From: a bacterium
Lineage (GTDB): Bacteria; Patescibacteriota; Minisyncoccia; Phycocordibacterales; Zambryskibacteraceae
Reading direction: 5' to 3'
Assembly: GCA_030649135.1 (NCBI GenBank)
Contig: JAUSGI010000008.1
Coordinates: forward strand, 1 to 64,000
DNA: 64,000 nt
The notes under the pieces are model-generated. The model searched no databases. It had not been told where the DNA came from and was given only the letters and a program-made list of their open reading frames with translations. Shown here piece after piece: positions 4,552 through 56,035 of the stretch (within the stretch, counting starts at the first letter, position 1; each line of letters opens with the position of its first letter). The translations under genes and the position numbers were made by a program.

Positions 4552-4570
4552 GTATGTTATATTGGCTTCA

Positions 4571-5830
4571 ATGAAATCTGAAGAAATCAGGCGGCGATTC
4601 CTGGCATTTTTTGAGAAGCGCGGACACGCCGTTATTCCTTCTGCCTCGCTTGTACCAGAAAATGATTCTTCGGTCCTCTTCACCACTGCCGGGATGCAGC
4701 CTCTGGTGCCGTATTTAATGGGTAAGAAACATCCTCAAGGTAAGCGCTTGGTCAATATTCAGAAATGCGTACGTACTCAAGACATAGAAGAAGTGGGCGA
4801 CAATACTCACGATACTTTTTTTGAAATGCTAGGCAACTGGTCTCTCGGTGATTATTTTAAAGAAGATGCGATTAAATGGAGTTTCGAGCTCCTGACTTCC
4901 GAGTCGGAAGGTTTTGGTCTTGACCCTAGCCGTCTATATATAACGGTATTCGAAGGGGATGAAAATGCTCCTCGCGATGTGGAGTCTTTTGAAACTTGGA
5001 AAAAATATATGCCGGAGAATCGAATATTTTTTCGGGGCGCAAAATCAAATTGGTGGAGTGTGGGAGAGAGTGGCCCCTGTGGCCCCGATACGGAAATGTT
5101 CTACGATATCACCAAGGAAGGTCTCGGCGATATGAGTAAAGAAGAATACATAGCGGCCGATGAAAGGCAAAACGTGGTCGAAATATGGAACGACGTCTTT
5201 ATGGAATATGAGAAGAAAGATGGTCGGGTAGTCGGCAAGCTTTCCCAAAAAAATGTGGATACCGGCGCGGGTTTGGAGCGTTTGACTACGGCTCTGCAAA
5301 ATAAAGACAATATTTTCGACACAGATTTGTTTGCCCCGATGATGGCGGCTCTCTCAAGCGTATCTTTTCCAGATGTTCGCTCTGCACGCATTGTTACTGA
5401 CCATATCCGTACTTCGGTCTTTATGATTGCAGATGGCGTCACACCTTCCAATACCGACAGGGGATATGTTTTACGCAGATTGCTGCGCCGTTCCTATATA
5501 TATGCGAGAAAAATGGGAGCGGATATCGATATTTTGCACGCTGTGGCGAATATAGTGCTTGAGCATCCAAGTTATAAAGGACTTTATACTTTTAATGTCG
5601 ATACTGTAAAGTTAGTTACTGAAGAAATAGAGAAATTTAAAAAAACACTCGAAGCGGGTCTGAAGCAAATCGAGAAAGGCGAGGATCCATTTACGCTTTT
5701 TACCAGCTACGGATTGCCATTGGAGATTATCGAAGAAGTTGTGCCGGTCGACAGAGTAAAATTTCAACAACAAATGGAACAACACAAACAAATTTCCAGT
5801 GTGGCTGGGGAGAATAAATTTAAAAACTAA
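4571..5830 (+). CDS. alaS: alanyl-tRNA synthetase, catalytic and tRNA-recognition domains only (~419 aa; no editing or C-Ala domain)
   Basis: FTTAGMQPLVPY, class II motifs, GYVLRRLLRR, TSYGLPLEIIEE; ORF stops at ~420 aa and the next gene is unrelated. Confidence 0.85.
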   Translation: MKSEEIRRRFLAFFEKRGHAVIPSASLVPENDSSVLFTTAGMQPLVPYLMGKKHPQGKRLVNIQKCVRTQDIEEVGDNTHDTFFEMLGNWSLGDYFKEDAIKWSFELLTSESEGFGLDPSRLYITVFEGDENAPRDVESFETWKKYMPENRIFFRGAKSNWWSVGESGPCGPDTEMFYDITKEGLGDMSKEEYIAADERQNVVEIWNDVFMEYEKKDGRVVGKLSQKNVDTGAGLERLTTALQNKDNIFDTDLFAPMMAALSSVSFPDVRSARIVTDHIRTSVFMIADGVTPSNTDRGYVLRRLLRRSYIYARKMGADIDILHAVANIVLEHPSYKGLYTFNVDTVKLVTEEIEKFKKTLEAGLKQIEKGEDPFTLFTSYGLPLEIIEEVVPVDRVKFQQQMEQHKQISSVAGENKFKN

Positions 5831-5845
5831 GTTATAATATAAAGG

Positions 5846-7168
5846 ATGCCGAAAAAAATTGAAGATATTATTGTACCGGTAAGAAAAAGGAGTATCAGAG
5901 ATGTTCCTATTCCGGAAAGCCGTAGAAAGAATGAAGATATCTCCGACTCTTCTCTGCCGAGAGAACATAATTTTCCGGAAGTGGGGCACCGCGATATCGA
6001 CTTGCGCCGAGAAAACAGGAGGTTTCCCAAATTTTTTGGTAAAAGCGTGTGGGTTGCTACCGGTGTGGCTATCATAGTGCTCATCTTCGCCGCGCTCTCC
6101 ATATTTAATGGGGCTACTTTGGCTTATGTCCCCAAGTCTCTGGCAATCTCTTTCGACAAAGATGTTTACACGGCGCATAAGTCCGGAGAAGGCAAACTTC
6201 TTTACAGCATTATCAAACTTTCTGGAGACAAGGGACTAGATGTGTCTGCATCTGGGGAAGAAGAGATTCGAAGGAAGGCCAGCGGTCTCATCATTGTCTA
6301 CAACACAGGCGCCAAACAACAGAGATTAAGGGCGACTACGCGCTTCGAGACTCCGGATGGCAAAACTTATCAGGTCCAAGATGCCATCGTCGTGCCGGGT
6401 CAGAAGATAGTGCGCGGTGTCGAGGAACCGGGTGTCATAGAAGTCAAGGTTTATGCGGAAAATCCCGGAGAAGAATTTAATATTGGTCTAACAGATTTCT
6501 CCCTACCGGGTTTGAAAGGCACATCGCTCTTCTCGTCTGTGTACGCTCGCTCTAAGACAGAGATGTCGGGCGGGTTTATGGGTGTGGAAAAAGTGGTCAA
6601 CAACCAAGAGAAGGCGCAAGTGAGGGTGCGTCTCGAGACGACATTAAGAGACGAGCTTATCTCCGAAGCCAGAGCCCAAGTGCCGGAAGATTTCATCTTG
6701 TTCCCGTCTCTCTCTCGTGTGACTTTCGAGGACCTGCCCCAGACAGGCTCTCTAAGTAAAGATAGCGCGACTGTCAACATACGGGGTAATTTACAGGGGG
6801 TCATGTTCAAGAAAAGTGATTTAACTAATCACCTGGCTCTCGGTAAAATTACGCGTGTGGCCGGCGAGACAATAGACCTTGTGGCGCTAGATTCCCTTAA
6901 TTTTATTTTCGTGAATACTTCACCGGCGGATTTATTACTGGTGGATGAGATTAAGTTTATTGTGACGGGAGAAGTAACGGCGGTATGGCGCACCGATGAG
7001 GTGGCTCTGAAGGCTGACTTAGCCGGGAAGCATAAAAGAGATATTTCTTCCATCCTCAATAACTATCCAACCGTGCTGTCTGCCACCACCACCATCCGGC
7101 CGTTTTGGAAAAGCTCTTTCCCATCGGACGGCGCGCGCATATCAATGAAGAAACTACCTGTCAATTAA
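5846..7168 (+). CDS. hypothetical membrane-anchored protein (cytoplasmic N-tail, one TM, large extracytoplasmic domain)
   Basis: ORF with a single hydrophobic segment (VWVATGVAIIVLIFAALSIF); no recognisable domain. Confidence 0.5.
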   Translation: MPKKIEDIIVPVRKRSIRDVPIPESRRKNEDISDSSLPREHNFPEVGHRDIDLRRENRRFPKFFGKSVWVATGVAIIVLIFAALSIFNGATLAYVPKSLAISFDKDVYTAHKSGEGKLLYSIIKLSGDKGLDVSASGEEEIRRKASGLIIVYNTGAKQQRLRATTRFETPDGKTYQVQDAIVVPGQKIVRGVEEPGVIEVKVYAENPGEEFNIGLTDFSLPGLKGTSLFSSVYARSKTEMSGGFMGVEKVVNNQEKAQVRVRLETTLRDELISEARAQVPEDFILFPSLSRVTFEDLPQTGSLSKDSATVNIRGNLQGVMFKKSDLTNHLALGKITRVAGETIDLVALDSLNFIFVNTSPADLLLVDEIKFIVTGEVTAVWRTDEVALKADLAGKHKRDISSILNNYPTVLSATTTIRPFWKSSFPSDGARISMKKLPVN

Positions 7169-7171
7169 TAT

Positions 7172-7405
7172 ATGCCACAAAGCAAAGCTTTGGATGTAGA
7201 GAGAATGGGTGTTGTGGTTGAGTCTCTGCCCAATATCATGTTCCGGGTGAAGCTTGATGACTCGCCGGCTAGCGGAGAGGATACGATTCTTTCCTATCTG
7301 TCCGGCAAGATGCGTCTGCATCGTATTCGGGTCTTGGTGGGGGATAAGGTATTACTCGAGCTCGAACCCTATGGCGGTAAGGCTCGTATTATCAAGCGAC
7401 TCTAG
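7172..7405 (+). CDS. infA: translation initiation factor IF-1
   Basis: S1-like 77 aa; [16 protein letters not shown]. Confidence 0.9.
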
Positions 7406-7442
7406 ACAAAAAAAGGAAGTTAAGCTAGAATGCAAACCTGTT

Positions 7443-7559
7443 ATGAAGGTAAAAGCGGCGGTTAGAAAGCTATGCGCAAAGTGCCAAATAGTCCGTAGAA
7501 AGGGCTATGTTTACGTAACTTGCAAAGCAAATCCTAGACATAAGCAAAGACAAGGCTAG
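7443..7559 (+). CDS. rpmJ: ribosomal protein L36
   Basis: [38 protein letters not shown]. Confidence 0.9.
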
Positions 7560-7937
7560 ATGAGAATATTAGGCATAACTATCCCGGAGGAAAAGCGTCT
7601 TGAAATTGGTCTCACGGCCATTTTCGGCATTGGTCGTCCTCGCGCCAGAACCATCCTCACCAAGGCCGGTGTGCCTCTGGGCAAGAAATCAAAGGAGGTC
7701 AGTATAGAAGAGGAAAATAAAATTCGTTCGGTTATCGAAAGTCTGACTTTAGAAGGTGATTTGAAAAGGGAAGTGGCGGGCAATATTAAACGGCTTAAAG
7801 ATATCAAGACTTACCGAGGCGTGCGCCATATGCGTAATCTGCCTGTCCATGGTCAGCGCACCAAGTCCAATGCGCGAACGAAACGAGGCGCGAGAAAGAC
7901 CATGGGTACGGGACGCAAAGTAGCGGAAAAGAAATAA
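7560..7937 (+). CDS. rpsM: ribosomal protein S13
   Basis: MRILGITIPEEKRLEIGLTAIFGIGRPRA. Confidence 0.95.
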   Translation: MRILGITIPEEKRLEIGLTAIFGIGRPRARTILTKAGVPLGKKSKEVSIEEENKIRSVIESLTLEGDLKREVAGNIKRLKDIKTYRGVRHMRNLPVHGQRTKSNARTKRGARKTMGTGRKVAEKK

Positions 7938-7943
7938 AATATA

Positions 7944-8396
7944 ATGGGTAAGAAAAGAATAGTAAAGACAGAAGAAGAAGCCGTCAAAAGCACAGATGGC
8001 AGTATTGCGGGTGTGGAAAAAAAGGAGGAGGTGAAGGTGTCGCGCAGACACTTCGACTCCGGTATTCTCTACGTCGAGTCTACATACAACAATACCAAGC
8101 TGACACTCACCGACAGCAAGAGTAATACTCTTGCGTGGTCTTCAAGCGGTAGTCTCGGATTCAGAGGGGCTAAGAAGGGTACACCATTTGCCGCCGCAAA
8201 AGTGGGCGAAACACTGTCACTTAAGGCCCAAACTCTGGGTATCAAAGAGGTCAAAGTGATAGTCAAGGGCGTGGGTTCCGGTCGGGAGTCGGCTATCCGA
8301 GGGTTTATTTCTAAAGGCATTAATTTGACCACTATCCAAGATAAGACTCCAGTGCCCCACAATGGTCCGAAACCACCTAAGCCGAGGAGAACTTAA
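7944..8396 (+). CDS. rpsK: ribosomal protein S11
   Basis: S11 core TLTDSKSNTLAWSSSGSLGFRGAKKGTPFAA. Confidence 0.95.
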   Translation: MGKKRIVKTEEEAVKSTDGSIAGVEKKEEVKVSRRHFDSGILYVESTYNNTKLTLTDSKSNTLAWSSSGSLGFRGAKKGTPFAAAKVGETLSLKAQTLGIKEVKVIVKGVGSGRESAIRGFISKGINLTTIQDKTPVPHNGPKPPKPRRT

Positions 8397-9045: not shown

Positions 9046-10026
9046 ATGGCTGATTACACAATACTTTTACCTTCAAAACCAAAGGTAATTTCCGAAAAAG
9101 GAGAGAGCGGCGTCTTCGAGATTGAGGGGCTTTATCCGGGTTATGGCCACACTCTTGGCAACAGTCTGCGTCGCATCATCCTCTCGTCTTTGCCCGGGGT
9201 AGCTATCACTTCGGTCAAAATTGCCGGTGTTAGCCATGAATTCTCCGTCTTGGATGGAGTGAAAGAAGATATTGTCACTATCCTGCTCAATCTCAAGAGA
9301 ATTCGTATGCGCTTCACTACCGATGAACCGCAGACTCTGTATCTCAAAGCGAAGGGTCTCTCTGCGCAGGACGGGGAAAAGGTGATTCGAGCTTCTGACC
9401 TGGAGGTGCCGGGTCAAGTAGAAATTCTCACACCGGATGAAATTATCGCCACCATCATTGGCAAAAACACGGTGCTCGATATGGAAATCAAGGCGGAAAA
9501 AGGTCTCGGTTTCATGCCCAAAGAAATGATAGAAAAAAATCGCGTGGATATCGGGACTATCGCTTTGGACGGTATCTTCACTCCAATTAGGCGCGCGAGT
9601 TATGAGGTGGAGAACATGCGTGTCGGGGACAGAACCGATTTTAACAAATTAAGAATGTCTATCGAGACTGACGGCACCGTTTCTCCTTCGGTGGCTCTCT
9701 CTTCCGCCATTGAGATTATGATAGGACAACTCAAGGCGATTATAGGTTTTCGAGAAGATGAGCCGGTAGCCGAAGAAAAACCGGCTCGAGAAGGTCGAGG
9801 TTCAGTCTCGAAGTCGGTGGCCGACCCTGAAGTGCTTAAGACTCGCGTGGAATCTCTGGAAGTTTCTCCCCGCACCAGCCATGCGCTTGCCCTTGCCAAT
9901 ATTCGCACGGTAGGTGGTTTGGCCCGCAAGAAAGAGAAGGACTTGCTAGAAATTGACGGTCTCGGAGCCAAGGGTATCCAGGAGATTAAAAAAGCCCTCG
10001 GAGAGTTCGGCATCACTTTAAAGTAA
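9046..10026 (+). CDS. rpoA: DNA-directed RNA polymerase alpha subunit
   Basis: N-terminal dimerisation domain and C-terminal aCTD helix-hairpin-helix. Confidence 0.9.
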   Translation: MADYTILLPSKPKVISEKGESGVFEIEGLYPGYGHTLGNSLRRIILSSLPGVAITSVKIAGVSHEFSVLDGVKEDIVTILLNLKRIRMRFTTDEPQTLYLKAKGLSAQDGEKVIRASDLEVPGQVEILTPDEIIATIIGKNTVLDMEIKAEKGLGFMPKEMIEKNRVDIGTIALDGIFTPIRRASYEVENMRVGDRTDFNKLRMSIETDGTVSPSVALSSAIEIMIGQLKAIIGFREDEPVAEEKPAREGRGSVSKSVADPEVLKTRVESLEVSPRTSHALALANIRTVGGLARKKEKDLLEIDGLGAKGIQEIKKALGEFGITLK

Positions 10027-11682: not shown

Positions 11683-13593
11683 ATGGCAAAAATCATTGGC
11701 ATCGATCTTGGTACGACAAACTCCGCTGTTGCGGTGATGGAAGCCGGCCAGCCGAAAATTATCGAGAATGCCGAGGGTGCGCGTACCACTCCCTCTATCG
11801 CGGCTATTTCCAAAACCGGCGACCGCTTGGTCGGACTCCTTGCCAAACGTCAGGCGGTGACCAATCCTCAAAATACCATTTTCGGCATCAAGCGTTTTAT
11901 CGGACACACCTTCTCTGACCCCGCGGTTCAGAAGGACAAGGCCACCGTACCATTCGCGGTGCTTGCCGCTTCCGATGGTTCGGTGATGGTCAAGATGGGT
12001 GACAAAGATAATCGCCCGGAAGAAATTTCCGCCATGATTCTTCAGAAGCTTAAGGCGGACGCGGAAGCCAAGCTTGGTGAAAAAATTACGGAAGCCATTA
12101 TTACCGTGCCGGCCTATTTCAACGATGCTCAAAGAAAGGCGACCAAAGATGCCGGTCAGATTGCGGGACTCGACGTCAAACGTATCATCAACGAACCGAC
12201 TGCCGCCGCCCTGGCTTATGGATTTAATAAAAAAAAGAATGAGAAAATTGCCGTTTTCGACTTTGGCGGCGGCACTTTCGACATCTCCATCCTTGAAGTG
12301 GGGGATGATGTGGTCGAGGTAAAGTCCACCGATGGCGATTCGCACTTGGGGGGTAAAGATATTGACCAGAAGGTGCTTAACTACATCGCCGAGGAGTTCA
12401 AGAAGGAGTCCGGTATAGACGTTAGAAAAGATGCTCTGGCCCTTCAGCGTCTGGATGAGGCCGCCGAGAAGGCCAAGATTGAACTCTCCACCGCGACCGA
12501 AACGGAAATCAATATTCCGTTCATCACTTCCGATTCATCGGGCCCGAGACATTTGCTGTTAAAACTTTCCAGAGCGAAGCTCGAAGAACTTTCCAGAGAA
12601 TTTCTGGATCGAGCCATGGAAATTACCAAACGCGCCATGGAAGCCTCTCCGTTTAAAGTCGGTGACTTGCAGGAAGTTATTTTGGTGGGAGGGCAGACAC
12701 GCATGCCGATGATTGTGGAAGTAGTTAAAAAATTCTTTGGCAAGGAACCGAACAAGTCCATTAATCCTGACGAAGTGGTGGCACTAGGCGCCGCTATTCA
12801 AGGTGGGATTCTTGCCGGTGATGTCAAAGATGTGCTTCTGCTCGATGTTATTCCTCTCTCACTCGGTATTGAGACTATGGGTGGCGTTGCTACCAAGTTG
12901 ATTGAGAAAAATACCACCATTCCATCGGCAAAGTCGCAGGTCTTCTCCACAGCCGCCGATAATCAAACCTCGGTGGAAATTCATATCGTGCAAGGCGAGC
13001 GTGCCATGGCGACGGACAACAAATCTCTTGGTCGGTTTATCCTGGACGGTATTCCTCCGGCGCCGCGCGGCATGCCCCAGATTGAAGTGACTTTCGATGT
13101 TGACGCTAACGGCATTCTCAATGTGAAGGCTAAAGATAAAACTTCCGGCAAAGAACAATCTATCAGAATAGAGGCAAGGTCGAGTTTGTCGAAAGAAGAA
13201 ATCGAGAGGATGCAAAAGGATGCGGAGGCTCACGCCACAGAAGACCAAAAGAAAAAAGATTTGGTTGATGCTAAAAATCTTGCTGAACAACTTATTTACA
13301 CAGCTGAAAAATCTCTGAAGGATGCGCCTAGTATTCCGGATGATATTAAAACCGCAGTCAACGATAAAATAGCCGGGCTTAAGAAAGAAAAGGATAGCGG
13401 TACTGTTGAATCAATTAAATCCGCCACAGAGGCACTCTCTACCGAGATGCAGAAGATAGGGGAGTATCTTAGTAAGAATCCACCGGCAGGCGAAGCCGCC
13501 TCCGCTGGAAGCTCCGGCGAGCCACAGCCGGAAGTTAAAGATGCGGAAGTAAAAGAAGAACCAAAGAAAGACGATTCGGAACCAAAAGTTTAG
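11683..13593 (+). CDS. dnaK: chaperone DnaK (Hsp70)
   Basis: [18 protein letters not shown]; full-length Hsp70. Confidence 0.97.
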
Positions 13594-13681: not shown

Positions 13682-14068
13682 TTAGAGAAGCTCGAGATCT
13701 CCGAAGAACATCTCGTGCAGGTTGATGTCGGGTTTGCCCTCGCCGTCGTTGTGGTAGAAAATGATACTCCAAGGGGCAGGCTGTCTGTTGATTCCGAATG
13801 AGATCGACGGTGTCACGGTATCCCTCGTCCACTGTCGGGGAAGTTGACTCGTGATCAGTGTGAATCCATTGGAATTGCCGTGTAGCTCGATCCCGTGGAT
13901 TGTACCGCTGATTCGAACGAGCCCTTCTTCTCCCCATCCTTTGGGTACTACCATTTCGTATGTGAAGGCGAACTTGCGGCCGATGAGCTCACGCTCTTCG
14001 GGTAAGCCCGCTTCAGTGAGGAGAGACTGCAGTTTCCTGCCCAACGCCTCCCTGGCTTGCGGATCCAT
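13682..14068 (-). CDS. hypothetical protein; GC-rich orphan inserted between dnaK and dnaJ
   Basis: ORF with SD GGAAGAGG upstream of the internal ATG at 14068; own terminator; no recognisable domain. Confidence 0.5.
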   Translation of the reverse strand: MDPQAREALGRKLQSLLTEAGLPEERELIGRKFAFTYEMVVPKGWGEEGLVRISGTIHGIELHGNSNGFTLITSQLPRQWTRDTVTPSISFGINRQPAPWSIIFYHNDGEGKPDINLHEMFFGDLELL

Positions 14069-14144
14069 TTCGAACCTCTTCCTGCATCTCTCGATGCACT
14101 GAAATCGCACAACTCTGGGGCTACGATACTATATTTGTGAGTTT

Positions 14145-14381
14145 ATGTCAAGTATACTTAAAGTCAAAAAATCTTATAATAAGTACATGCAAATTCTGGA
14201 TATAAAGTTGCACAAACAAGTTAAAATGGTTTCCAAAAGGCTTGGCTTAAATCCTCGTGAGGTTATAAATCGCGCAGTTTCTTCTTACCTCGGTAGTATG
14301 AAAGAACTCACAGACCTTCAGAAAGAGCTTCATCTGTGGGATGTTTTGTCTGCACAAACAATGCAAAAATATAAGTTCTAG
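14145..14381 (+). CDS. ribbon-helix-helix (CopG/MazE-like) antitoxin
   Basis: 78 aa; LDIKLHKQVKMVSKRLGLNPREVINRAVSSYL; sits 3 nt upstream of the MazF-like ORF. Confidence 0.6.
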   Translation: MSSILKVKKSYNKYMQILDIKLHKQVKMVSKRLGLNPREVINRAVSSYLGSMKELTDLQKELHLWDVLSAQTMQKYKF

Positions 14382-14383
14382 AT

Positions 14384-14707
14384 ATGAAACCGGGTGATGT
14401 ATATATTGTTCGTATTCCCGAACTCGGTACTCACGAACAGAGTGGAACAAGACCTGTAGTGGTCATTGCTCGAGTTACAAAAACCATCGTTACAATCATC
14501 CCTTGCACTGGAAATAAACTTGCTCTTCGTTTCCCATACACATATGAGATAGAAGCAACAAAAAGGAACGGTCTATCTGTCAATTCTGTAGCACTCGTAT
14601 TTCATATTCGCGCTCTTGACTCCTCTTTTCTTAAGGATAAAATAGGCGAACTCGATAAGAAAGTACTTGCAAATATACGAAAACAAGCAAGACAACTTAT
14701 TGGATAA
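14384..14707 (+). CDS. MazF/PemK-family endoribonuclease toxin
   Basis: PGDVYIVRIPELGTHEQSGTRPVVVIA (PemK/MazF N-terminal signature); 107 aa. Confidence 0.75.
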   Translation: MKPGDVYIVRIPELGTHEQSGTRPVVVIARVTKTIVTIIPCTGNKLALRFPYTYEIEATKRNGLSVNSVALVFHIRALDSSFLKDKIGELDKKVLANIRKQARQLIG

Positions 14708-14773
14708 ATTTTACAATGAAAGATTATTACCCCAGTAGCATAGCAAAGCTAGCTACGGGGCAGGCAAAATTCT

Positions 14774-15661
14774 ATGAAAGATTACTATAAGATACTCGGT
14801 ATAAGTCGTGATGCTTCAGAGGAGGAAATAAAAAAGGCCTTTCGTAAGCTCGCGCACGTTCATCATCCGGATAAATCTGGCGGCAACGAAGCGAAGTTTA
14901 AGGAAGCAAGCGAGGCCTACTCCGTGCTCTCCGACAAAAAGAAGCGTGCCCAATATGATGCCCCCGGTTTCGCGGGCTTTCAAGGCAGTCAAGCCGGCGG
15001 GGCAGGATTTGACCCATCCGGGTTTGGTTTCGATTTCTCCGGTTTCGGCAACGCCGGTTTCGATACGTCTGACTTGGGTGATATTCTTTCAAGCATTTTT
15101 GGTGGACGCCGTGTGCGCCGCGGTCGTGACATCGCTGTAGATATTGAGCTCTCTTTCCAAGAATCTATCTTCGGCGCGGAGAGAAAAGTGGTCATTAACT
15201 CAAAGTTTGTAAAGCAGAAGGAAGTTTCAATAGGCGTACCGCCCGGCATTGATGACGGTCAGATGGTTCGTCTCACCGGTCAGGGCGAAATTCTTGAGGG
15301 CGGGGTGCCAGGCGACTTGTATGTCAAAGTTCATGTTCGTAAGCATCCGTATCTGCGCAAAGAGGGATATAACCTGATAATGGATTTGGAAATTAAACTG
15401 ACCGAGGCACTCCTGGGCGCAGAAAAAATTATTCATACTCTAGACGGGGAAATTACTTTGAAAATTGCGGCCAGCACCAAACATGGCAGTATCTTGCGGG
15501 TTAAAGGGAAGGGAGTGCCAACCGGAGGTCGCCCCGCCTTCGCTGAAGCTTCGGCGGGTAAAAGAGGCGACCTCTACATACGCATCTCTGTCCAAATCCC
15601 AGAAAAACTTTCCCCAGATGCCCGCAGGACGGTTGAGGAATTGAAGAAACTGGGGTTGTAA
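14774..15661 (+). CDS. dnaJ: DnaJ-family co-chaperone lacking the Cys-rich Zn-finger (CbpA-like)
   Basis: J-domain with HPD, G/F-rich linker, C-terminal substrate domains; no CxxCxGxG repeats. Confidence 0.85.
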   Translation: MKDYYKILGISRDASEEEIKKAFRKLAHVHHPDKSGGNEAKFKEASEAYSVLSDKKKRAQYDAPGFAGFQGSQAGGAGFDPSGFGFDFSGFGNAGFDTSDLGDILSSIFGGRRVRRGRDIAVDIELSFQESIFGAERKVVINSKFVKQKEVSIGVPPGIDDGQMVRLTGQGEILEGGVPGDLYVKVHVRKHPYLRKEGYNLIMDLEIKLTEALLGAEKIIHTLDGEITLKIAASTKHGSILRVKGKGVPTGGRPAFAEASAGKRGDLYIRISVQIPEKLSPDARRTVEELKKLGL

Positions 15662-15991: not shown

Positions 15992-16008
15992 TATGGTCAA
16001 TAAAAATC

Positions 16009-16041
16009 GACCCTCGGTTCGCGCGAGCGAGACCGAGGGTT
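16009..16041. repeat. copy A of a repeated GC-stem hairpin (ACCCTCGGT...ACCGAGGGT); terminator-like for the minus gene 16060-16401
   Basis: 9-bp perfect stem; near-identical copy at 56003-56035; the minus strand has a T-run after the stem. Confidence 0.6.
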
Positions 16042-24900: not shown

Positions 24901-24942
24901 ATCTATTCTCATGTTCTCAAGAACACCAGAATAAACTATTCT

Positions 24943-24961
24943 CCTATTCGCGCGAATTAGA
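24943..24961. repeat. palindromic motif CTATTCGCGCGAATTAGAC; near-copy at 31742-31760
   Basis: ATTCGCGCGAAT core palindrome; 17/19 match to the second copy at the boundary of another inserted cassette. Confidence 0.45.
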
Positions 24962-30148: not shown

Positions 30149-30160
30149 CTCTTCAGTAAC

Positions 30161-31117
30161 ATGAAAAACATTCTCGTTACAGGCGGGGCCGGCTACATCG
30201 GCAGTGTCACGGTCAGAGGATTGCTTAATAGCGGGCACAAAGTGACTGTTCTGGACAATCTCTATAAGGGGAGGAGAGAACTGATAGATAAAAGGGCTGT
30301 TTTCCACAAACTGGATGTTATCAATTTGCCGGCTTTAGAGAGGTTTTCCAGAGGCAAGAAATTTGATGTGATTGTACATTTTGCCGCCTTGAAAGATGCC
30401 GGTGAATCTATGGTCAGGTCGGATTGGTATCAGGACAACATCACAGGGGTGATGAATCTCCTTAAAATTGCTCCGAAATTGAAGGTCAAGCAATTTGTCT
30501 TCTCCTCTTCAGCGGCTGTTTACGGTGAGCCGGGAACGAGGGTTATTGACGAAGACCATTCATGCCATCCTACCAACTTTTATGGCTATACCAAACTTGC
30601 GGGAGAGGAACTCTTGGAATGGGCAAGGAAACTAAAGGGAATAGAATATGTGGCGCTTAGATATTTTAATGTTGCAGGTGACGGGGGGCTCAATTATATA
30701 GACCCCAAGGCCCGAAATATCTTTAATGTTATTGGCGAGGTCCTGTGTGGCAGGAAAAAGGTGTTGGAAATATTCGGAGGTGACTATCATACTAAGGACG
30801 GGACGGGTATCCGAGACTACATTCATGTTACCGATTTGGCCAAGGCTCACGAAAAAGCTTTAAAGGTGAAAGGTTCCCATTTTATCAATCTTGGTAGTGA
30901 AAAGGGGTATTCGGTGCTGGAAATTGTCAAAGAATTTGAGAGAGTTTCCGGTGAAAAAGTGCCGTATAAGATAATCAAGAGACGGGCGGGAGATCCCGCC
31001 TCTCTAATTGCCACTTCCGCTAAGGCAAAGTCGATTCTCAAGTGGGTTCCTAAACTAGGGCTTAGAGAAATGGTTGAAAGTACCTGGCGGGCTTATAGAA
31101 AAACCAGCGAAGTGTAA
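30161..31117 (+). CDS. galE: UDP-glucose 4-epimerase (NAD-dependent epimerase)
   Basis: ILVTGGAGYIGS; YxxxK region. Confidence 0.85.
   Translation: MKNILVTGGAGYIGSVTVRGLLNSGHKVTVLDNLYKGRRELIDKRAVFHKLDVINLPALERFSRGKKFDVIVHFAALKDAGESMVRSDWYQDNITGVMNLLKIAPKLKVKQFVFSSSAAVYGEPGTRVIDEDHSCHPTNFYGYTKLAGEELLEWARKLKGIEYVALRYFNVAGDGGLNYIDPKARNIFNVIGEVLCGRKKVLEIFGGDYHTKDGTGIRDYIHVTDLAKAHEKALKVKGSHFINLGSEKGYSVLEIVKEFERVSGEKVPYKIIKRRAGDPASLIATSAKAKSILKWVPKLGLREMVESTWRAYRKTSEV
31029..31097 (+). repeat. direct repeat copy 1 (functional galE 3' end)
   Basis: 69 bp; 65/69 identical to 31763-31831. Confidence 0.8.
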
Positions 31118-31175
31118 TAATCACAATCTTCATACGGCTAGATTTAGTTGACAATACTGGTAGTATGAGTACTAT

Positions 31176-31406
31176 ATGAACCTCAAGCTAACCCGGCATT
31201 TCCAGGACATGATACAGCATCGGGGAATAGAGCTGGATGATGTCAAAAGGGCACTTAGCTCATCGGACGAAACAGTAGATGCCCATGATGGGGCTTTAAA
31301 GGTAACAAAACAAATTGGGGATAAAAAAATCGAGGTGATATACTGTAGGGAGACATTCAAAGATAGAAAAGACGAATACTTAATAATCACGGCATATTAT
31401 TTGTAA
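31176..31406 (+). CDS. DUF4258-like small protein (putative toxin-like component)
   Basis: 76 aa; promoter-like TTGACA at 31146. Confidence 0.5.
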   Translation: MNLKLTRHFQDMIQHRGIELDDVKRALSSSDETVDAHDGALKVTKQIGDKKIEVIYCRETFKDRKDEYLIITAYYL

Positions 31407-31409
31407 AAT

Positions 31410-31643
31410 ATGAAAATAGATTACGACAAAGTAGCAGATGCAATTTATTTCACTGTTAAAAGTGATAAAGTTGCTAAGTCTATAAAAGTAGACGACAGGC
31501 TTGTCGTCGACCTTTCCGCGTCGGGTGATATCGTCGGAATGGAACTATTAGATGCATCTTCAAAACAAGGGCAAGAACTTGAAAACAATATAAAGCAAGG
31601 AGTTCCCATAAATATTATCTCTGCCACACCGGTAACAGCTTAA
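31410..31643 (+). CDS. DUF2283-like small protein
   Basis: MKIDYDKVADAIYFTV (YDxxxDAxY motif); 77 aa. Confidence 0.55.
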   Translation: MKIDYDKVADAIYFTVKSDKVAKSIKVDDRLVVDLSASGDIVGMELLDASSKQGQELENNIKQGVPINIISATPVTA

Positions 31644-31646
31644 TCA

Positions 31647-31677
31647 CAGAAGCCCCGCAAGGGGGTCTTCTGTTTTG
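31647..31677 (+). terminator. rho-independent terminator
   Basis: CAGAAGCCCC-gcaa-GGGGGTCTTCTG then TTTTGGG. Confidence 0.6.
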
Positions 31678-31741
31678 GGCACACTATAAATAAAATAATG
31701 ACAACCCCCATGAAGACAATGCCCCCGTTCCCGTTATTCTA

Positions 31742-31760
31742 CCATTCGTGCGAATTAGCC
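31742..31760. repeat. palindromic motif CCATTCGTGCGAATTAGCC (copy 2)
   Basis: see 24943-24961; directly abuts the galE 3' duplicate. Confidence 0.45.
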
Positions 31761-31762
31761 AT

Positions 31763-31831
31763 AGTCGATTCTCAAGTGGGTTCCTAAACTAGGGCTTAAA
31801 GAAATGGTTGAGAGCACATGGCGGGCTTATA
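31763..31831 (+). repeat. direct repeat copy 2: displaced alternative galE 3' end (encodes ...SILKWVPKLGLKEMVESTWRAYKSVR*)
   Basis: 94% identical to 31029-31097, then diverges. Confidence 0.8.
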
Positions 31832-32052
31832 AATCGGTTAGATAAAGGACAATCTAAAGGACATTTAGACTTTCTAATGCAGAGGCCTTGGCTGGACGGA
31901 TTTTTCTTGCGTATTAGGAAAAAGTTATGCACAAGCTGTGAACAGGTTAATTAACATTGTCAACTTGACGGCCAGAAGGTGGGGTGTAGTGTTGCCGCAT
32001 ACTGTACTTGTCCTGTTAGCTTATATTACACAATAAAAAAAATTTAAAAAAA

Positions 32053-35000
32053 ATGACAAAACTCATGGGGGTAATTCTTAGCTTAGTGCTAATGGCCGGG
32101 TCGGTCCAAGCGGCCACCTTAGATGACATAGTATTTACAGAAATAATGGCGACTCCCAATGCTGTGGCTGATGCCGACGGCGAGTGGATTGAAGTTCAGA
32201 ACAATTCTTTAAGCCCAGTAGATATTGGAGGTTGGATATTAAACGATGGTTCAGATCACACTATTTCCGGACCTTATTCTATACCAGCGGGTGAGAAAGC
32301 GGTAATCTGTCGCGACAATGATTCCTCTGTAAATGGAGGAGTTAAATGCCATTATCAATCAGTTATGGTCCTAACTGACATTGGTAAAACTCTGCAACTT
32401 CTTGAGGGGGTGACCACTATAAACGAGGCTACATACGGAGACACTGCTGGAAATTCGGGAAAATCAGTTTATATTCCTAGTGGAAGTTTCGAGTCTGTTA
32501 GTCAATTTGGAAATGGCGATTATGGAACTCCGGCTGGGAATGGTGCATCAATTGGAACTCATTCCTACGCTTCGATTCAGATTGCAATTGATGCGGCAAT
32601 TTCCGGTAACACGATAGATGTTGGAGCGGGGACTTACGCGGAGAATGTTTCGCTTGACGGAAAGACAAATCTTACAATTCAAGGCGCTGGAGAGGCAACC
32701 ATTATTGAACCAGCAAGCGGAATTGGTTTTGCAATTAAAAATTCAAGCGGCATAACAATAAAGAATCTTAAAATACATACCACAGGAACCAATGCCCATG
32801 GTGTCTGGGTTGCGGGAACTCCGAATGGCGGAGCAACGGCGGTAACTGGTCTTACCGTACAAGATGACACCATAGTTGTTGACGGTTATTCCAGCGGCAT
32901 TTACGCCGAACAAGTTGATACAACACCTCATTCTGGCTGGCTAATAACAGGGAACACTATAACTGTAAATCCTGGCGCTGGTGTTACTGGTGATGGAATG
33001 GACTTGCACGATGTGTCGGGTTCGGAGGTAAGCTACAACACAATAATTCTGAATACTCCGACTGATAGCACAAATGTTCTCTGGACAAGCGAATTGTCAA
33101 ATCTTTCTAGTCTCATATTCTCCAATAACACCATCAGTGGCTCAAGCGGTAGTGAGATAGCAATCCTAACTGATTTTCTGGATGCTCTAGCAGATACATC
33201 AATTACCACCGTAACAGTAAGTGGAAACACGTTCAGTAATTGGGGTTCTAGGGCCCTAAGAGTCGGGACGGCTAACGGAACCGGAGCGGTGACGGAAATC
33301 GCAGTAAATTCAAACATATTCCAAATGGCCGCCGACACAACAGAAGTTATCGGCGGCACGGCTGCGTCAAGTGCGACTGGTAGCGGCAATATCTTCAATG
33401 TTAGTGGGACAGCAAAAATTCAAAAAGCGGTAGACGGGGCATTTTCTGGCGACACGATAAATGTCGCAGCGGGGACTTATGACGAACAGGTCGTAATAGA
33501 TGGAGAAGACCTGATATTACAAGGTGTTGGTGATACAACTATCATCCGACCATCTGCACCCGCAACGCTTACCCAGACTTATACCTTCCCAGCCGGAACT
33601 TTTTGGTCTGGCACAACTGCATCAAGTATTATCCTAGTGGAAAATGCCAGCGCTGTTACTATAAAAGATCTTAAAGTAGACGGTATTAATGTTACCAGTT
33701 TGCCCTTAACAGGTTCGCCTGACAGACTCGTCGGAGTTCTTTTGGGAGTATCTTCAGGTACCATTGATAATGCTACGGTCACTTCCATTAAAACAGCTGG
33801 CTATGCAAACCGTACATATGGCATTGAAGTAAGTGGCGCTGATAGTGGCACTTACAGCGTTGAAGTTAAAAGTTCTCATATAACAGACTGGGCTCGTAAT
33901 GGGATTGTTGCAGATGGAACTAATCTTACGGCCAACATCAATCACAACACGCTTGTAGGTCCTGGTACTATCTCTGGGCAGGTCGCTAACGGCATTCTTT
34001 TCATTGGTGGAGCTGCTGGTAACACTACAAGTAATACTATCAGCGGAATGCACTACAACGCAGATCCAGTATCTCGCAGTGCCGGTATCTTGATTTATGG
34101 CGCAACCACGGCCGGAATCTTGATAGACCAAAATGACATTTCCGATACGGATGATGGAATAAATTTGTCGGCCAGTTCTCATAACGCGACTGTCAGCAAC
34201 AACAATCTGCATAATAATCTAGAAGTAGGTATACAACTAGAAAACGGGACAGCAAACAACGCCATAACTGGGAACACAATTGTTAATAATACAATGGCTG
34301 GTATACGTTTTGGCGGTGCAGGTGATCCGGTTCCCGCGGAAGCGGATACTCCACCTGGGGCAGGTAATGTTGCTAATGATAAAAATACGATTACTGGTAA
34401 CGCGAACGGTATAGTAAATTACGATACGGGTCTTGGACAGATATTTGATGCCGCCAACAACTGGTGGGGCAACGTGAGCGGACCGTTCAACACTACAAGC
34501 AATCCTTTGGGAACCGGTGATTCTATTTCCGACAATGTAAACTTTGTTCCGTGGTATTCCACTAGCGGAATGACGACGCTTGTTTCCGCAAACATGATTG
34601 CTTACAATACCGCCTTGGATGCCGTTAGTCAGACGGACTACACGACTGCAAGCTGGTCTGCCTACCAAGCAATTGTGACTGCCAATACGAGGACCGACCA
34701 AAACACTCAAACTGAAGTTGATGACGCGACGGCCGCAATCACTACCGCGCAACTTGATCTGATTGCTATTGCCGACCTCACTGATTACAACACCGCTTTA
34801 GACGCAGTTGTTGAAAGCGATTATACGACCGAAAGCTGGGCAACGTATCAAGCTATTGTGGACGCCAATGTGGTAACCGACCAACATACCCAAGCTGAAG
34901 TTGATACAGCAATCGATAATATTACCATCGCGCAAGATGATTTAGTGGCAACACTGGACGTAGCAAAAACAACGGCACATGAAGCTCTTACAACTGCTCG

Positions 35001-37160: not shown

Positions 37161-39182
37161 ATGAATAAAAAAACTATCATCTCTGCGTCCGATGATATAA
37201 TCCTAAATCTCAAAGTTTCGGCTAAGGAAAAAGAAATTGTCAGGCGCAAACTTGCTGTAACAGCAGAGAGGCTTGCTGCGACGGCAGTGAAACTTGCCAT
37301 AACAGCTAAGGAAAGAGAAAGTGTGAGGATTAAGCTAGCGGTGACTGCCGAAGAAAAGGAACATGTCAGGCTTAAGTTAGTGGTGACCGCAGAGAAGCTT
37401 GCTGTAATCGCAGAGAAGCTTGCTGTGACTGCCGAGGAAAAGGAAAGTGTCAGGCGCAAACTTGCCGTGACGGCAGCCAAACTTGCAGTAACGGCAGCTA
37501 AACTCTCCGCAACTACTGAGGAAAAAGAAAGTGTGAGACGCAAGAAGCTAGTCGCGACAGCAGCTAAGCTTGCTGTAACAGCAGAGAAGCTTGCTGCGAC
37601 CGCCAAAGAAAAGGAGAGTGTCAGGCGCAAACTTGCTGTGACCGCAGCCAAACTTGCTGTGACAGCAGAGAAGCTTGCCGCGACGGCCAAGGAAAAAGAA
37701 ATTGTTAGGCGTAAACTCGTCGTGACGGCAGAAAAGCTAGTCGTGACGGCAGCCAAACTCGCCGTGACAGCAGAGAAGCTTGCCGCGACGGCAGCCAAAC
37801 TCGCAGTAACTGCTAAGGAAAAAGAAATTGTTAGGCGTAAACTTGCAGCGACTGCTAAGGAAAAAGAAAGTGTCAGGCGCAAGCTGGTAGTGACTGCTAA
37901 GGAAAAAGAAAGTGTCAGGCGTAAGCTGGTGGTGACAGCCAAGGAAAAGGAGAGCGTCAGGCGTAAGCTGGTGGTGACAGCAGCTAAACTTGCTGTAACT
38001 GCAGCGAAACTCAAAAAGTCGTACGAAACACTCGAGAAGAAAGTGCTTGAACGAACCAAGAGTCTAGAAATGTCCAGAGCAAAGGAAGAGGCGGTTTTGC
38101 TCTCGATTGGTGACGGACTTCTTGTGACTAATGAAAAAGGAAATGTTATTATTATAAATAAGACAGCTGAAAAACTACTCGGTATTAAGAGTAAAGAAGC
38201 TATGGGAAAGGTCTTTTCCGAAGCCGTTCTTTTGGTAGATGAAAAAGGGGTGCCTATTCCGTCAGAGAAACATCCCGTAAGGATGGCTCTAGTAAGCGGC
38301 ATTACTACTGCCACTACTATTGTAGGTTCCACTTACTATAATGTGCGGAAAGATAAAACGAAATTTCCTGTGGCAATTATGGTCACGCCCGTTATTCTTG
38401 ACGGGAAGGTGATTGGAACAATTGAAGTTTTTCGAGATATTACCGCCGAGCGGGAAATTGATAAAGCCAAAACCGAATTTGTTTCCCTTGCTTCACACCA
38501 GCTCCGCACCCCGCTTTCTACGGTCAATTGGTACGCGGAAATGCTTCTGGCCGGAGATGTGGGGGAGTTGAATGAAAAACAAAAGAAATATTTAGATGAG
38601 GTATATCGCAGTAATCAGCGAATGGTTGAATTGGTAAACGCCCTTTTGGATGTCGCTTCTCTTGAAATTGGTACCTTTGTGGTTGAGCCGGAACCAACCG
38701 ATATAATCGAACTAGCGCAAAGTGTCATAGACGAACAAAAACCGCAGATTGAGGCCAAAAAAATAGTATTTTCTTTTTCATTCGGGAAAAATATTTCACT
38801 TATGCAGGCCGACCCCAAACTCCTGCGAATGATAGTGCAAAATATCTTGTCAAATGCGGTAAAATATACTCATGAAGGCGGGAAAATCGATATGTCGATT
38901 TCCTTAGCGGACAAAAATAATATTCTTCTGAAAGTCGATGATACGGGCTACGGCATACCCCAAAATCAGCAAGATAAAATATTTACCAAGCTGTTTCGGG
39001 CCGATAATGTCAGAGATAAAGACACGGACGGCACGGGCCTCGGGCTCTATATTGTAAAGTCAGTCGTTGAAAATTCTGGCGGGAAAATCTGGTTTAAGTC
39101 CGTGGGCGGGGAAGAAAATAAAGGCACCACCTTTTATGTATCGCTGCCTTTGGATGGGGCGAAAAAGCCGGCTAATATATAA
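37161..39182 (+). CDS. sensor histidine kinase: N-terminal repetitive coiled coil, PAS, HisKA, HATPase_c
   Basis: heptad KEKESVRRKLAVTAAKLAVTAEKLAAT repeats; PAS; H-box SLASHQLRTPL; HATPase N/G boxes. Confidence 0.85.
   Translation: MNKKTIISASDDIILNLKVSAKEKEIVRRKLAVTAERLAATAVKLAITAKERESVRIKLAVTAEEKEHVRLKLVVTAEKLAVIAEKLAVTAEEKESVRRKLAVTAAKLAVTAAKLSATTEEKESVRRKKLVATAAKLAVTAEKLAATAKEKESVRRKLAVTAAKLAVTAEKLAATAKEKEIVRRKLVVTAEKLVVTAAKLAVTAEKLAATAAKLAVTAKEKEIVRRKLAATAKEKESVRRKLVVTAKEKESVRRKLVVTAKEKESVRRKLVVTAAKLAVTAAKLKKSYETLEKKVLERTKSLEMSRAKEEAVLLSIGDGLLVTNEKGNVIIINKTAEKLLGIKSKEAMGKVFSEAVLLVDEKGVPIPSEKHPVRMALVSGITTATTIVGSTYYNVRKDKTKFPVAIMVTPVILDGKVIGTIEVFRDITAEREIDKAKTEFVSLASHQLRTPLSTVNWYAEMLLAGDVGELNEKQKKYLDEVYRSNQRMVELVNALLDVASLEIGTFVVEPEPTDIIELAQSVIDEQKPQIEAKKIVFSFSFGKNISLMQADPKLLRMIVQNILSNAVKYTHEGGKIDMSISLADKNNILLKVDDTGYGIPQNQQDKIFTKLFRADNVRDKDTDGTGLGLYIVKSVVENSGGKIWFKSVGGEENKGTTFYVSLPLDGAKKPANI
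37200..38010 (+). repeat. in-frame tandem repeats, 21-bp periodicity with 42- and 84-bp higher-order units
   Basis: e.g. three 42-bp units GCTAAGGAAAAAGAAAGTGTCAGGCGCAAGCTGGTAGTGACT at 37854-37979. Confidence 0.85.
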
Positions 39183-48681: not shown

Positions 48682-48757
48682 GTCTGCGGTCAAAATCGCT
48701 GCCTGGCCCAGGCTCCTAACTAGAGCTCGGGCCATTTTCTTTACATACAAATAAAAA

Positions 48758-48785
48758 GGGCCCACTGCCTTGCGACAGTGGGCCC
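48758..48785 (-). terminator. GC-clamped hairpin followed by T-run on the minus strand; terminator for the pyrE-like gene
   Basis: GGGCCCACTG-ccttgcga-CAGTGGGCCC; minus-strand TTTTTATTTG follows. Confidence 0.65.
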
Positions 48786-48795
48786 GAGGGCCATC

Positions 48796-54822: not shown

Positions 54823-56004
54823 GTGGCTATAAAACTACACAATACTCTGACAGGTTCGCTTGAGGCATTTGAGCCTCTCAAATCCGGTAAGGTCGGGATG
54901 TTTGTCTGTGGACCGACTGTCTACGATTTCTCACACTTAGGCCATGCGAAGACATACATTCAGTTTGACTTCCTCGCCCGTTATCTGGGTTACATGGGCT
55001 ATGAAGTGACGTATGTGCAAAATATTACTGATATAGACGACAAGATAATAGAGCGTGCTCGTGAAAAAAATGTCGAACCAAACATGTTGGCAGAGGAGTA
55101 TGAGAGATATTATCTCGAAGATATGGCGGCGCTCAATAATATTAGTGTCGATAAATACGCAAGGGCCCATGATTATATTCCGCAAATTGTCGACCAAGTG
55201 AAACGCCTATTGGCGAAGGATATGGCGTATCGCATTTCCGATGGATATTATTTTGATATCAAACAGTTCGAAGATTACGGAAGGTTATCGGGACGTTTAT
55301 CGTTGGAGCCCGGCGATGCGGTATCTAGAATTGATGAAAACCAGGAGAAAAGAAACCCCGGCGATTTTTGTCTCTGGAAGTTTCGAAAGGAAGATGACCC
55401 ATATTGGTCAACAGAACTTGGTGAAGGTCGCCCGGGCTGGCATATAGAAGATACGGCTATTACCGAAAGCGAACTTGGTCCCCAATACGATATCCACGGC
55501 GGCTCAATGGATTTAATTTTTCCGCACCATGAAGCGGAGATCGCTCAAATGGAATCGGCGTCGGGTCTGAAACCCATGGTTAAGTACTGGTTACATACAG
55601 GATTTCTGAATGTTAAAACCGAAAAAATGTCCAAAAGTTTGGGTAACTTCATTACCATTAGAGCGGTAACAGAGAAAGGTGTTTCCCCGTTGGCACTAAG
55701 ATATCTCTTTCTGCTATCTCACTACCGCACTCCGACCAACTTCAGCTTCGAAGCACTTGAAGCGGCGGAAAATGCCTATAACAGATTAAAGAAATTTGTA
55801 GCCGGCTTGTTGGGCACAGGAGTTGTAGACGAAAGTTACAAACAAAAATTTACGGAAAAGTTGGAAAACGATCTCAATACACCGCAGGCCTTGGCTGTAG
55901 TTTGGGGTCTAATTAAAGATAAAGACATCTCACCGGAGGATAAACTGGCCACTATTTTGGATTTCGATAAAGTACTTGGGCTGGGACTTGAATATAAAAA
56001 ATGA
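54823..56004 (+). CDS. cysS: cysteinyl-tRNA synthetase (compact; GTG start inferred)
   Basis: CGPTVYDFSHLGHAKT (HIGH), KMSKSLGN. Confidence 0.85.
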   Translation: MAIKLHNTLTGSLEAFEPLKSGKVGMFVCGPTVYDFSHLGHAKTYIQFDFLARYLGYMGYEVTYVQNITDIDDKIIERAREKNVEPNMLAEEYERYYLEDMAALNNISVDKYARAHDYIPQIVDQVKRLLAKDMAYRISDGYYFDIKQFEDYGRLSGRLSLEPGDAVSRIDENQEKRNPGDFCLWKFRKEDDPYWSTELGEGRPGWHIEDTAITESELGPQYDIHGGSMDLIFPHHEAEIAQMESASGLKPMVKYWLHTGFLNVKTEKMSKSLGNFITIRAVTEKGVSPLALRYLFLLSHYRTPTNFSFEALEAAENAYNRLKKFVAGLLGTGVVDESYKQKFTEKLENDLNTPQALAVVWGLIKDKDISPEDKLATILDFDKVLGLGLEYKK

Positions 56005-56035
56005 CCCTCGGTTCGCATGAGCGCAACCGAGGGTC
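56003..56035. repeat. copy B of the repeated hairpin (GACCCTCGGTT...AACCGAGGGTC); bidirectional terminator-like
   Basis: same stem sequence as 16009-16041; flanks match for another ~20 nt. Confidence 0.6.

Follow-up and report, generated by a model that had tools for sequence, protein, structure and literature searches.

A putative toxin-antitoxin cassette inserted at the 3′ end of galE in an uncultivated Parcubacteria lineage

We analyzed a 64,000-nt stretch of DNA from an uncultivated bacterium (positions 1–64,000 of contig JAUSGI010000008.1, GenBank assembly GCA_030649135.1; hereafter the window), concentrating on the 3′ end of galE, the UDP-glucose 4-epimerase gene. The gene is followed by two small open reading frames (ORFs) of the DUF4258 and DUF2283 families, and then by a second copy of its own 3′ end (Table 1). 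A protein identical to the 318-aa galE product carries the NCBI name GalE; exact-protein look-ups with the window GalE and DUF2283 proteins matched no record. An earlier note, made from the sequence alone, had reported that the last 69 bp of galE recur downstream, and we confirmed this: 31029–31097 and 31763–31831 share 65 of 69 nucleotides in an ungapped core scoring 110 bits, whereas shuffling the downstream flank 30 times gave no more than 23.8 bits. A repeat search extended the match, with 2 mismatches, to a 75-nt version (31023–31097 and 31757–31831, 92% identical). This is the sole repeat of its kind within the window.

The promoter-like TTGACA, the two genes and the terminator that the note had placed between the copies were all found. 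The second copy still encodes a GalE C-terminus, as had been claimed: an in-frame TAG (31762–31764) lies directly 5′ of it, and it reads SILKWVPKLGLKEMVESTWRAYKSVR between two stops, ending in KSVR, in a frame unbroken by any frameshift or stop. The two copies differ at four positions (31065, 31078, 31081 and 31084), three of these being synonymous changes at third codon positions and one an R/K exchange. Outgroup contigs L091 and L001 allow two of the differences to be polarized, 31065 and 31081, and at both the derived state is in copy 1, the one in use.

Copy 1 runs on into the tail RKTSEV, which is found in no other GalE among the 120 relatives compared, the set to which all statements on GalE tails refer. 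The R-K-T start resembles the common family tails xKTK and xKKK. The stop codon (TAA, 31115–31117) falls within cassette-homologous DNA, which makes up the last ~5 nt of the tail, the similarity to the left flank of the related cassette on contig L099 beginning at 31113. The idea that the inserted element supplied a replacement gene end is thus not upheld, since the new end consists of six read-through codons and is no conserved gene end. Relatives show free variation of the GalE tail beyond the residues AY, which makes such a tail tolerable.

Next, we compared the locus to that of the nearest GalE relative (P0002, contig L091), a protein of 316 aa with 87% amino acid identity and the C-terminus ...STWRTYRSVR; no further SVR tail occurs among the relatives. 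The downstream end of galE in L091 lacks the cassette, as does that in L092, an independent assembly identical to L091. Upstream, the window and L091 are syntenic through ScpA, ScpB, a D-Ala-D-Ala carboxypeptidase and a family-4 glycosyltransferase. In blastn comparisons, window 30160–31099 aligns with L091 galE (86% nucleotide identity up to 31099), and the alignment is taken up again at window 31769–31865 and L091 8875–8971, through the galE end, the stop codon and then the shared downstream AAGGACAATCTAAAGGACATT. Within this second block, 31837–31865 is identical to L091 8943–8971 at 29 of 29 positions. Since L091 galE ends in RSVR and then continues with the DNA that follows copy 2, copy 2 is the displaced native galE end. 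These alignments clearly indicate that copy 2, its KSVR tail and the DNA beyond it represent the original end of the gene, and that 31098–31762 is an insertion, with L091 serving as a cassette-free site at roughly genus level. The earlier proposal of an insertion into the galE 3′ end is therefore borne out, an empty-site allele being found among the relatives without the cassette. A metagenome scan with a GalE alignment, keyed on generic N-terminal NAD-binding patterns, returned only relatives of ≤43% identity and no empty site. In a sliding profile, galE identity to L091 falls toward the 3′ end, to 0.72 in 30971–31060; the native copy 2 is equally diverged from L091 (75% vs 72%), hence the drop is uninformative on a donor mosaic.

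Table 1 Features of the galE locus in the window and contexts of the cassette on other contigs.
Feature	Position	Strand	Basis or remark
galE (UDP-glucose 4-epimerase)	30161–31117	+	318-aa ORF; PF01370 Epimerase, 173 bits; now with non-native tail RKTSEV–stop
Repeat copy 1	31029–31097	+	in-use galE codons S291–Y312; reads KSILKWVPKLGLREMVESTWRAYRKTSEV–stop
New galE 3′ tail	31098–31117	+	codons R-K-T-S-E-V-stop; first codon base at 31097
galE/insert junction, 20 nt			GGGCTTATAGAAAAACCAGC
Conserved mobile core, ~540 bp	31113–31664	+	promoter, two genes, terminator; blastn against other cassette loci
Promoter-like region	31148–31175	+	TTGACA-16-TACTAT; kept in L093, L095, L099
Extended -10-like element	31158–31166	+	TGGTAGTAT; 9 nt ahead of DUF4258 ATG
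DUF4258 (BECR-fold, RelE/colicin-like) putative toxin, 76 aa	31176–31406	+	PF14076
DUF2283 (YuzE-like) putative antitoxin, 77 aa	31410–31643	+	PF10049, 47 bits
Intrinsic terminator	31652–31675	+	GCCCC-GCAAG-GGGGT and T-run; stem-loop search
Passenger segment, 98 nt	31665–31762	.	right end of insert; no match in other cassette loci
Lineage-specific motif, 34 nt	31731–31764	.	core AATTCGCACGAATGGTAGAAT on minus strand; closes insert before copy 2
Repeat copy 2	31763–31831	+	orphaned native galE 3′ segment; reads stop–SILKWVPKLGLKEMVESTWRAYKSVR–stop
Native galE tail and downstream flank	31831–31865	+	KSVR, stop at 31843–31845; L091 alignment
Junction expected of a cassette-free allele or precise excision			...GCTTATA joined directly to AATCGGTTAGATAA
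Cassette context L093/L094			after 146-aa gene
Cassette context L095/L096			after rplB, S10 operon
Cassette context L097/L098			beside tRNA gene
Cassette context L099/L121			after orthologue of the window's large surface-protein gene
Cassette context L100			after NYN-domain gene and 48-aa ORF
Cassette context L101–L110			after 5-formyltetrahydrofolate cyclo-ligase (5-FTHF cyclo-ligase) gene
Cassette context L122/L123	L122 2422–2804; L123 2852–3234		near smpB

The insert is 665 nt long, and the cassette within it is of lower GC content (0.31–0.36) than the flanks (about 0.42–0.50). Its ends, GAAAAACCAGCG... and ...GAATTAGCCATAG, are not inverted repeats by inspection. The DUF4258 protein scores 25.4 bits to PF14076 (cutoff 25), which is marginal on its own; the same family is matched by all seven cassette homologues tested (best E 3.2e-8). 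A single-sequence AlphaFold2 model of this protein (pLDDT, the predicted local distance difference test score, of 72.7) has a helix-helix-strand-strand-strand arrangement with no PDB match at E<0.001. The two ORFs are separated by 3 nt, and the mRNA may be leaderless, given the distance of the extended -10-like element from the start codon. Hairpins differing in sequence occupy the terminator position in L093, L095, L097 and L122. NCBIfam, PADLOC and PDB sequence searches returned nothing meaningful, and Rfam nothing credible over 30900–32100.

Comparison of the cassette to its relatives agrees with the earlier description of a consistent DUF4258/DUF2283 pair with its own promoter and terminator. 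One review counts DUF4258 among the BECR-fold toxin families of type II toxin-antitoxin modules (PMC11980606), and a recent preprint shifts it to the colicin-like branch, with overlap with Ntox49 (bioRxiv 10.64898/2026.08.28.747851). The cassette fits a putative toxin-antitoxin module, because the pairing with DUF2283 is constant, promoter and terminator are its own, and one decayed copy has kept the partner while losing the toxin. In that copy (L122/L123), ~140 nt of the DUF4258 gene have been deleted, leaving a 35-aa stub, and the DUF2283 gene is intact; a toxin-antitoxin pair would be expected to decay in this way, losing the toxin and keeping the partner. A DUF4258-like gene accompanies DUF2283 in seven of its eight other contexts, the truncated toxin gene being one of these seven. 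The exception is L111–L120 (e.g. L111 1825–3234), where a DUF2283 of 73% identity follows an HTH_3 and Peptidase_M78 (ImmA/IrrE-like) gene. That region is itself variable, also with a DNA methyltransferase and a DpnI-like gene.

The DUF2283 homologues (n = 42) are 70–95% identical and lie on Parcubacteria/Paceibacterota contigs. Identity of up to 95% elsewhere, relative to only 87% for GalE, argues for horizontal spread of the cassette. Its core is 70–85% identical at seven further unrelated sites in other Parcubacteria, and blastn delimits it similarly at each of the sites aligned: 31113–31644 to L099 (85%), 31126–31664 to L093/L094 (82%), 31147–31669 to L100 (81%) and 31148–31644 to L095/L096 (75%). 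From these shared boundaries, the ~540 bp from promoter to terminator are the unit that moves.

Two of the contexts have features of their own. The S10 operon of L095 is broken between rplB and rpsS by ~4.5 kb (3697–8215), which hold the cassette, rplJ-rplL, a 203-aa ORF and a mechanosensitive-channel-like gene. In the window, a conserved element of ~45 nt (TATGCACAAG...GTTAA...TTGAC) lies at 31926–31970, upstream of the large surface-protein gene; L091 has it at the equivalent position (9426–9470), where a 79-aa ORF stands before the large surface-protein gene. In L099 (378–420) the cassette follows the element immediately, with cassette-homologous DNA beginning 3 nt past the element's TTGACC.

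We then looked for duplications that flank the cassette at its other sites. In L099, 44 nt of the terminator of the upstream surface-protein gene are repeated right after the DUF2283 stop (62 bits, relative to a shuffle maximum of 20). In L095/L096, ~30–40 nt of the rplB end recur ~190 nt past the DUF2283 stop, a marginal match (29.5 vs 25.7 bits) which encodes the conserved L2 motif FIVRRR. We considered the downstream rplB-like copy as the native gene end and rejected it: 120 of 120 L2 relatives end in ...KVGKK or a close variant (e.g. ...KVGKR), the upstream rplB in use has the canonical ...KVGKK end, and the downstream copy is a decayed duplicate. No motif common to the flanking repeats of different loci, such as a dif-like or att-like core, was seen by inspection. 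Target-derived repeats of variable length at some of the insertions argue against a fixed att site and fit host recombination or repair.

These observations bear on the earlier suggestion that the insertion was site-specific, in the manner of islands at tRNA 3′ ends, which is not supported. On this explanation, an integrase would have acted on an attP mimicking the galE 3′ end, with the cassette mobilized in trans or left as the remnant of a larger island. Direct repeats of a gene 3′ end around foreign low-GC DNA, with the gene intact, are the classic signature of an island, toxin-antitoxin modules are common island cargo, and the empty site in a relative is in keeping with it. However, the Pfam search for an integrase or recombinase, as advised in the note, gave no integrase, serine recombinase or transposase domain in ~56 ORFs across the window, which instead comprise housekeeping genes, a two-component system, surface proteins and a MazF-like toxin, and no tRNA was found in the window. 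The cassette relatives lie at unrelated sites, without any integrase-family domain among the genes called around them; none of the seven other contexts is at galE or contains galE-like sequence, and the repeats that flank them derive from the local target (the rplB end, a neighboring terminator) and not from a galE-like att site. RKTSEV is not a tail conserved in GalE and terminates at a stop codon made of cassette DNA, and no cassette relative is among phage, plasmid or viral contig records. We therefore regard integrase-mediated integration as quite improbable. A transposon or insertion sequence finds no support either, with no transposase domain in those ~56 ORFs, no terminal inverted repeat by inspection and no fixed duplication length (69, 44 and ~30–40 nt).

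The recurrence of these arrangements also speaks to the integrity of the assembly. The window is a metagenome-assembled contig and a single record, and the two galE copies differ as two strain alleles might, so the structure could be a chimera of cassette-bearing and cassette-free strains. Yet the junctions are not k-mer overlaps, and the DNA before copy 2 is unique and without galE homology. Independent assemblies agree at 100% at analogous loci (L095 with L096, L091 with L092, L093 with L094 and L097 with L098), and the L099 arrangement is present in a second sample, L121, at 95.5% identity overall. An assembly artefact is thus an extremely improbable source of the galE structure.

The right end of the insert carries a motif restricted to this lineage. 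Its ~30-nt consensus is TTATTCTACCATTCG(T/C)GCGAATTAG(A)CCATAG, and it holds the palindrome ATTCGCGCGAAT and an extended -10-like TGGTAGAAT. Other copies are at window 24938–24958 and, intergenically, at L091 864–895 and 1657–1686, the L091 copies lying just upstream of a NUDIX gene and a gene of the tryptophanyl-/tyrosyl-tRNA synthetase (TrpRS/TyrRS) type (PF00579). The motif is probably an operator or promoter element. Its occurrence elsewhere between genes of the same lineage suggests that the passenger DNA came from a same-lineage genome. On the minus strand, the 96 nt that lie downstream of the orphan promoter-like motif do not fold better than shuffled sequence (z = -1.5), and a 23-codon ORF in it was discarded as unsupported.

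We propose, as roughly an even call, that host recombination with a related donor's DNA brought the cassette into galE. The cassette, which is small, toxin-antitoxin-like, spreading horizontally and without a recombinase of its own, would have entered the galE 3′ end from a related Parcubacteria genome which already carried it just after galE, pairing with the recipient galE by homology. This could have occurred by a single (Campbell-type) crossover of a circularized fragment through the ~70 bp of galE homology, or by homology-facilitated illegitimate recombination, with the right end joined at ...CCATAG/TCGATT..., 83 nt before the recipient stop. By either route, a donor-type end (copy 1 and RKTSEV) would be fused to the gene, and the recipient end (copy 2, KSVR and the downstream DNA) shifted behind the insert as an untranslated orphan. 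GalE function would be retained, since the residues after ...WRAY are naturally variable, and toxin-antitoxin addiction would then probably maintain the cassette. The 69-bp copies could recombine with each other, which would remove the cassette precisely and give back a galE of the KSVR type. The comparisons show the insertion itself, which end is native, that the cassette is mobile and that the window lacks an integrase; the route, the donor and the toxin-antitoxin activity are what we infer.

Five observations lead us to favor a donor, none of them strong. The orphan copy retains an intact reading frame; the derived states lie in the copy in use and not in the one free to drift; the R-K-T of the tail resembles family tails; the passenger DNA is lineage-specific; and the right joint shows only imperfect microhomology (AGGCAAAG and AGCCATAG, 6 of 8, plus AG). 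That three of the four differences are synonymous is a further hint of a donor allele. The left boundary of the insert is continuous galE. Several points weigh against a donor. No donor arrangement (galE ending in RKTSEV, then the cassette, without an orphan) was among the matches listed for the GalE relatives and the cassette contexts retrieved. The empty site is in a relative of 86% nucleotide identity and not in a genome of the same species. Four differences are too few to tell donor and recipient alleles from divergence after a duplication, and 69 bp is short for RecA-dependent recombination. Because the tail stops within cassette-like DNA, an earlier illegitimate insertion into the galE tail of the donor must be assumed. 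Finally, five of the eight cassette contexts have no flanking duplication.

The main rival is an in situ duplication of the target, which we consider a lesser but realistic possibility. Here a break in galE would have taken up the cassette through illegitimate end-joining or replication template switching, with two offset nicks or a switch back 69 nt upstream, and both copies would be recipient-derived and have since diverged at the four sites. Local duplications of variable length within the same cassette family (44 nt in L099/L121, ~30–40 nt in L095) favor this account, being what one would expect were duplication a part of inserting, as does the near-identity of L121 copy 2 to L099 copy 1 (46 of 47). 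So do the absence of a donor with the cassette beside galE among the matches listed, and the new galE tail reading straight into insert DNA. However, the orphan has acquired no frameshift or stop, and the changes that can be polarized are in the selected copy, where a neutral orphan should change faster. We know of no bacterial mechanism that routinely yields target duplications of 30–75 bp, which counts against it, as do insert ends that vary by locus and the five of eight contexts without any duplication.

The spacer that follows galE is informative on the same question. In L001 (GalE 81%), whose GalE tail is longer (...GEKKPIPSLYTDYAQV), it holds a two-gene HicA-like cassette on the minus strand (7055–7920), comprising a HicA-like gene (PF07927, 25 bits) and a 114-aa partner. 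This cassette is bracketed by a 53-nt direct repeat of 85% identity, including the promoter-like box TTGACAATAA. In L091 (9059–9404), an 87-aa ArsR-type (HTH_5) gene with no counterpart in the window has on either side a 31-nt direct repeat of 97% identity. This repeat contains the near-palindrome GAACAATTCCATAGAATTGTCC and could represent an operator duplication or the footprint of an insertion. Both repeats can be added to the support for in situ duplication; the palindrome in the L091 repeat tells against the latter use, as it may mark a mere duplicated operator. Other insertions or deletions near galE, a DUF5674 gene and a 109-aa ORF in L091 and asnB in L001, are without flanking repeats. 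The spacer is, from these comparisons, a turnover hotspot.

Elsewhere in the window, a 78-aa MazE-like ORF and a PemK/MazF toxin gene (PF02452, 68 bits) lie at 14145–14707, between dnaK (11683–13593) and dnaJ (14774–15661). Just past this pair, 14716–14729 (ATGAAAGATTATTA) repeats the first codons of dnaJ (14774–14787), a short match that could be chance. Between dnaK and the MazEF-like pair, a 142-aa ORF on the minus strand (13682–14110), of noticeably higher G+C and with no Pfam match, could represent more foreign DNA within the dnaK-dnaJ spacer. The N-terminal part of a PAS/HisKA/HATPase histidine kinase (37161–39182) contains about ten 42-nt (14-aa) coding repeats in tandem (37200–38030). 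A family of ~41-nt terminator-like hairpins (ATAAAAA..GACCCTCGGTT...AACCGAGGGT) is found at 16000–16040, 48751–48791 and 55994–56034, two copies being 85% identical despite a separation of 40 kb.

The galE insertion is a genuine trace of gene transfer, though a rather ordinary one, with no sign of a dedicated integrase. It offers a clean, datable example of the gain of a small selfish module in uncultivated Parcubacteria of the Candidate Phyla Radiation (CPR), whose genomes have few classical mobile elements. A housekeeping gene has received a toxin-antitoxin-like pair within its end and was not inactivated by it, apparently through host recombination alone, and the orphaned gene end marks both the direction of the event and the ancestral allele. 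If the flanking duplications at other genes share one process, this would suggest that cassettes can spread in these organisms independently of a recombinase.

A bolder version, which we hold to be rather unlikely, would make the repeat-flanked cassette a recombinase-free mobile unit that uses a piece of its host gene as a portable homology arm. Recombination between the gene-end copies would loop out a circle with the toxin-antitoxin-like pair and one gene-end copy. Parcubacteria are thought to be naturally competent, and after uptake by a related cell the ~70-bp copy would guide Campbell-type re-integration at the same gene, addiction then stabilizing the integrated state. If so, the local duplications at galE, rplB, the surface-protein terminator and the L001 HicA-like cassette would mark a general spread of small selfish cassettes in reduced genomes. 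Beyond recombination with a donor, in situ duplication, an integrase and an assembly artefact, other explanations of the insertion take what probability remains.

Comparison with known systems places the insertion among several precedents. The minimal mobile elements of Neisseria are variable cassettes between conserved genes, exchanged through transformation followed by homologous recombination. Similarly, a different small cassette occupies the spacer after galE in each relative (DUF4258/DUF2283, HicA-like or arsR-like), whereas the Neisseria elements are cleanly replaced through two homologous flanks and are not known to duplicate a gene end. Phage 21 and e14 at icd in E. coli, and islands at tRNA genes, insert into a gene 3′ end and supply a substitute end. 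They share with galE the direct repeat of the gene end, a functional gene with an altered end and foreign DNA in between, but they have an integrase and a constant att site, where we find no integrase and many unrelated sites.

As a toxin-antitoxin module, the cassette resembles the DUF4258 type II family in its ~76-aa PF14076 protein, in its two-gene operon with a small partner and in the decayed L122/L123 copy, from which the toxin is gone while the partner persists. It differs in that the toxin gene comes first, relative to the antitoxin/toxin order in the review (PMC11980606), and in that the partner is DUF2283 and not an MqsA- or HTH-type antitoxin. In E. coli lacZ, a single crossover of circular DNA with a gene-end fragment gives gene-end duplications of 109–950 bp, and this route is commoner than true illegitimate events (PMC3240628). 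There, as would be the case here, the insert is bracketed by a direct duplication of the target gene end and only host recombination is involved; the lacZ events are plasmid-borne and of 109–950 bp, whereas the galE repeat is ~70 bp and its circular intermediate hypothetical.

Homology-facilitated illegitimate recombination is proposed to underlie the displaced 3′ ends in type VI secretion system (T6SS)/Rhs arrays (PMC5361080). The orphan ends of effector-immunity loci of the Rhs, contact-dependent inhibition (CDI) and T6SS kinds differ from galE in three respects: the gene disrupted here is a housekeeping epimerase rather than a toxin gene, a stand-alone two-gene module that has its own promoter makes up the cargo, and there is a single displacement and no array, with an orphan of only 69 nt and a tail. 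In both, on the route proposed here for galE, the homology anchor lies in a conserved upstream gene, a new gene end and a toxin/immunity-type pair are brought in, and the ancestral 3′ end is displaced downstream, untranslated, without a dedicated recombinase (PMC5361080). Every component of the galE insertion thus has a precedent, in DUF4258/DUF2283 pairs, displaced gene ends, crossover duplications and hotspots between conserved genes, and what is new is a clear further example in an uncultivated lineage of the Parcubacteria (CPR).

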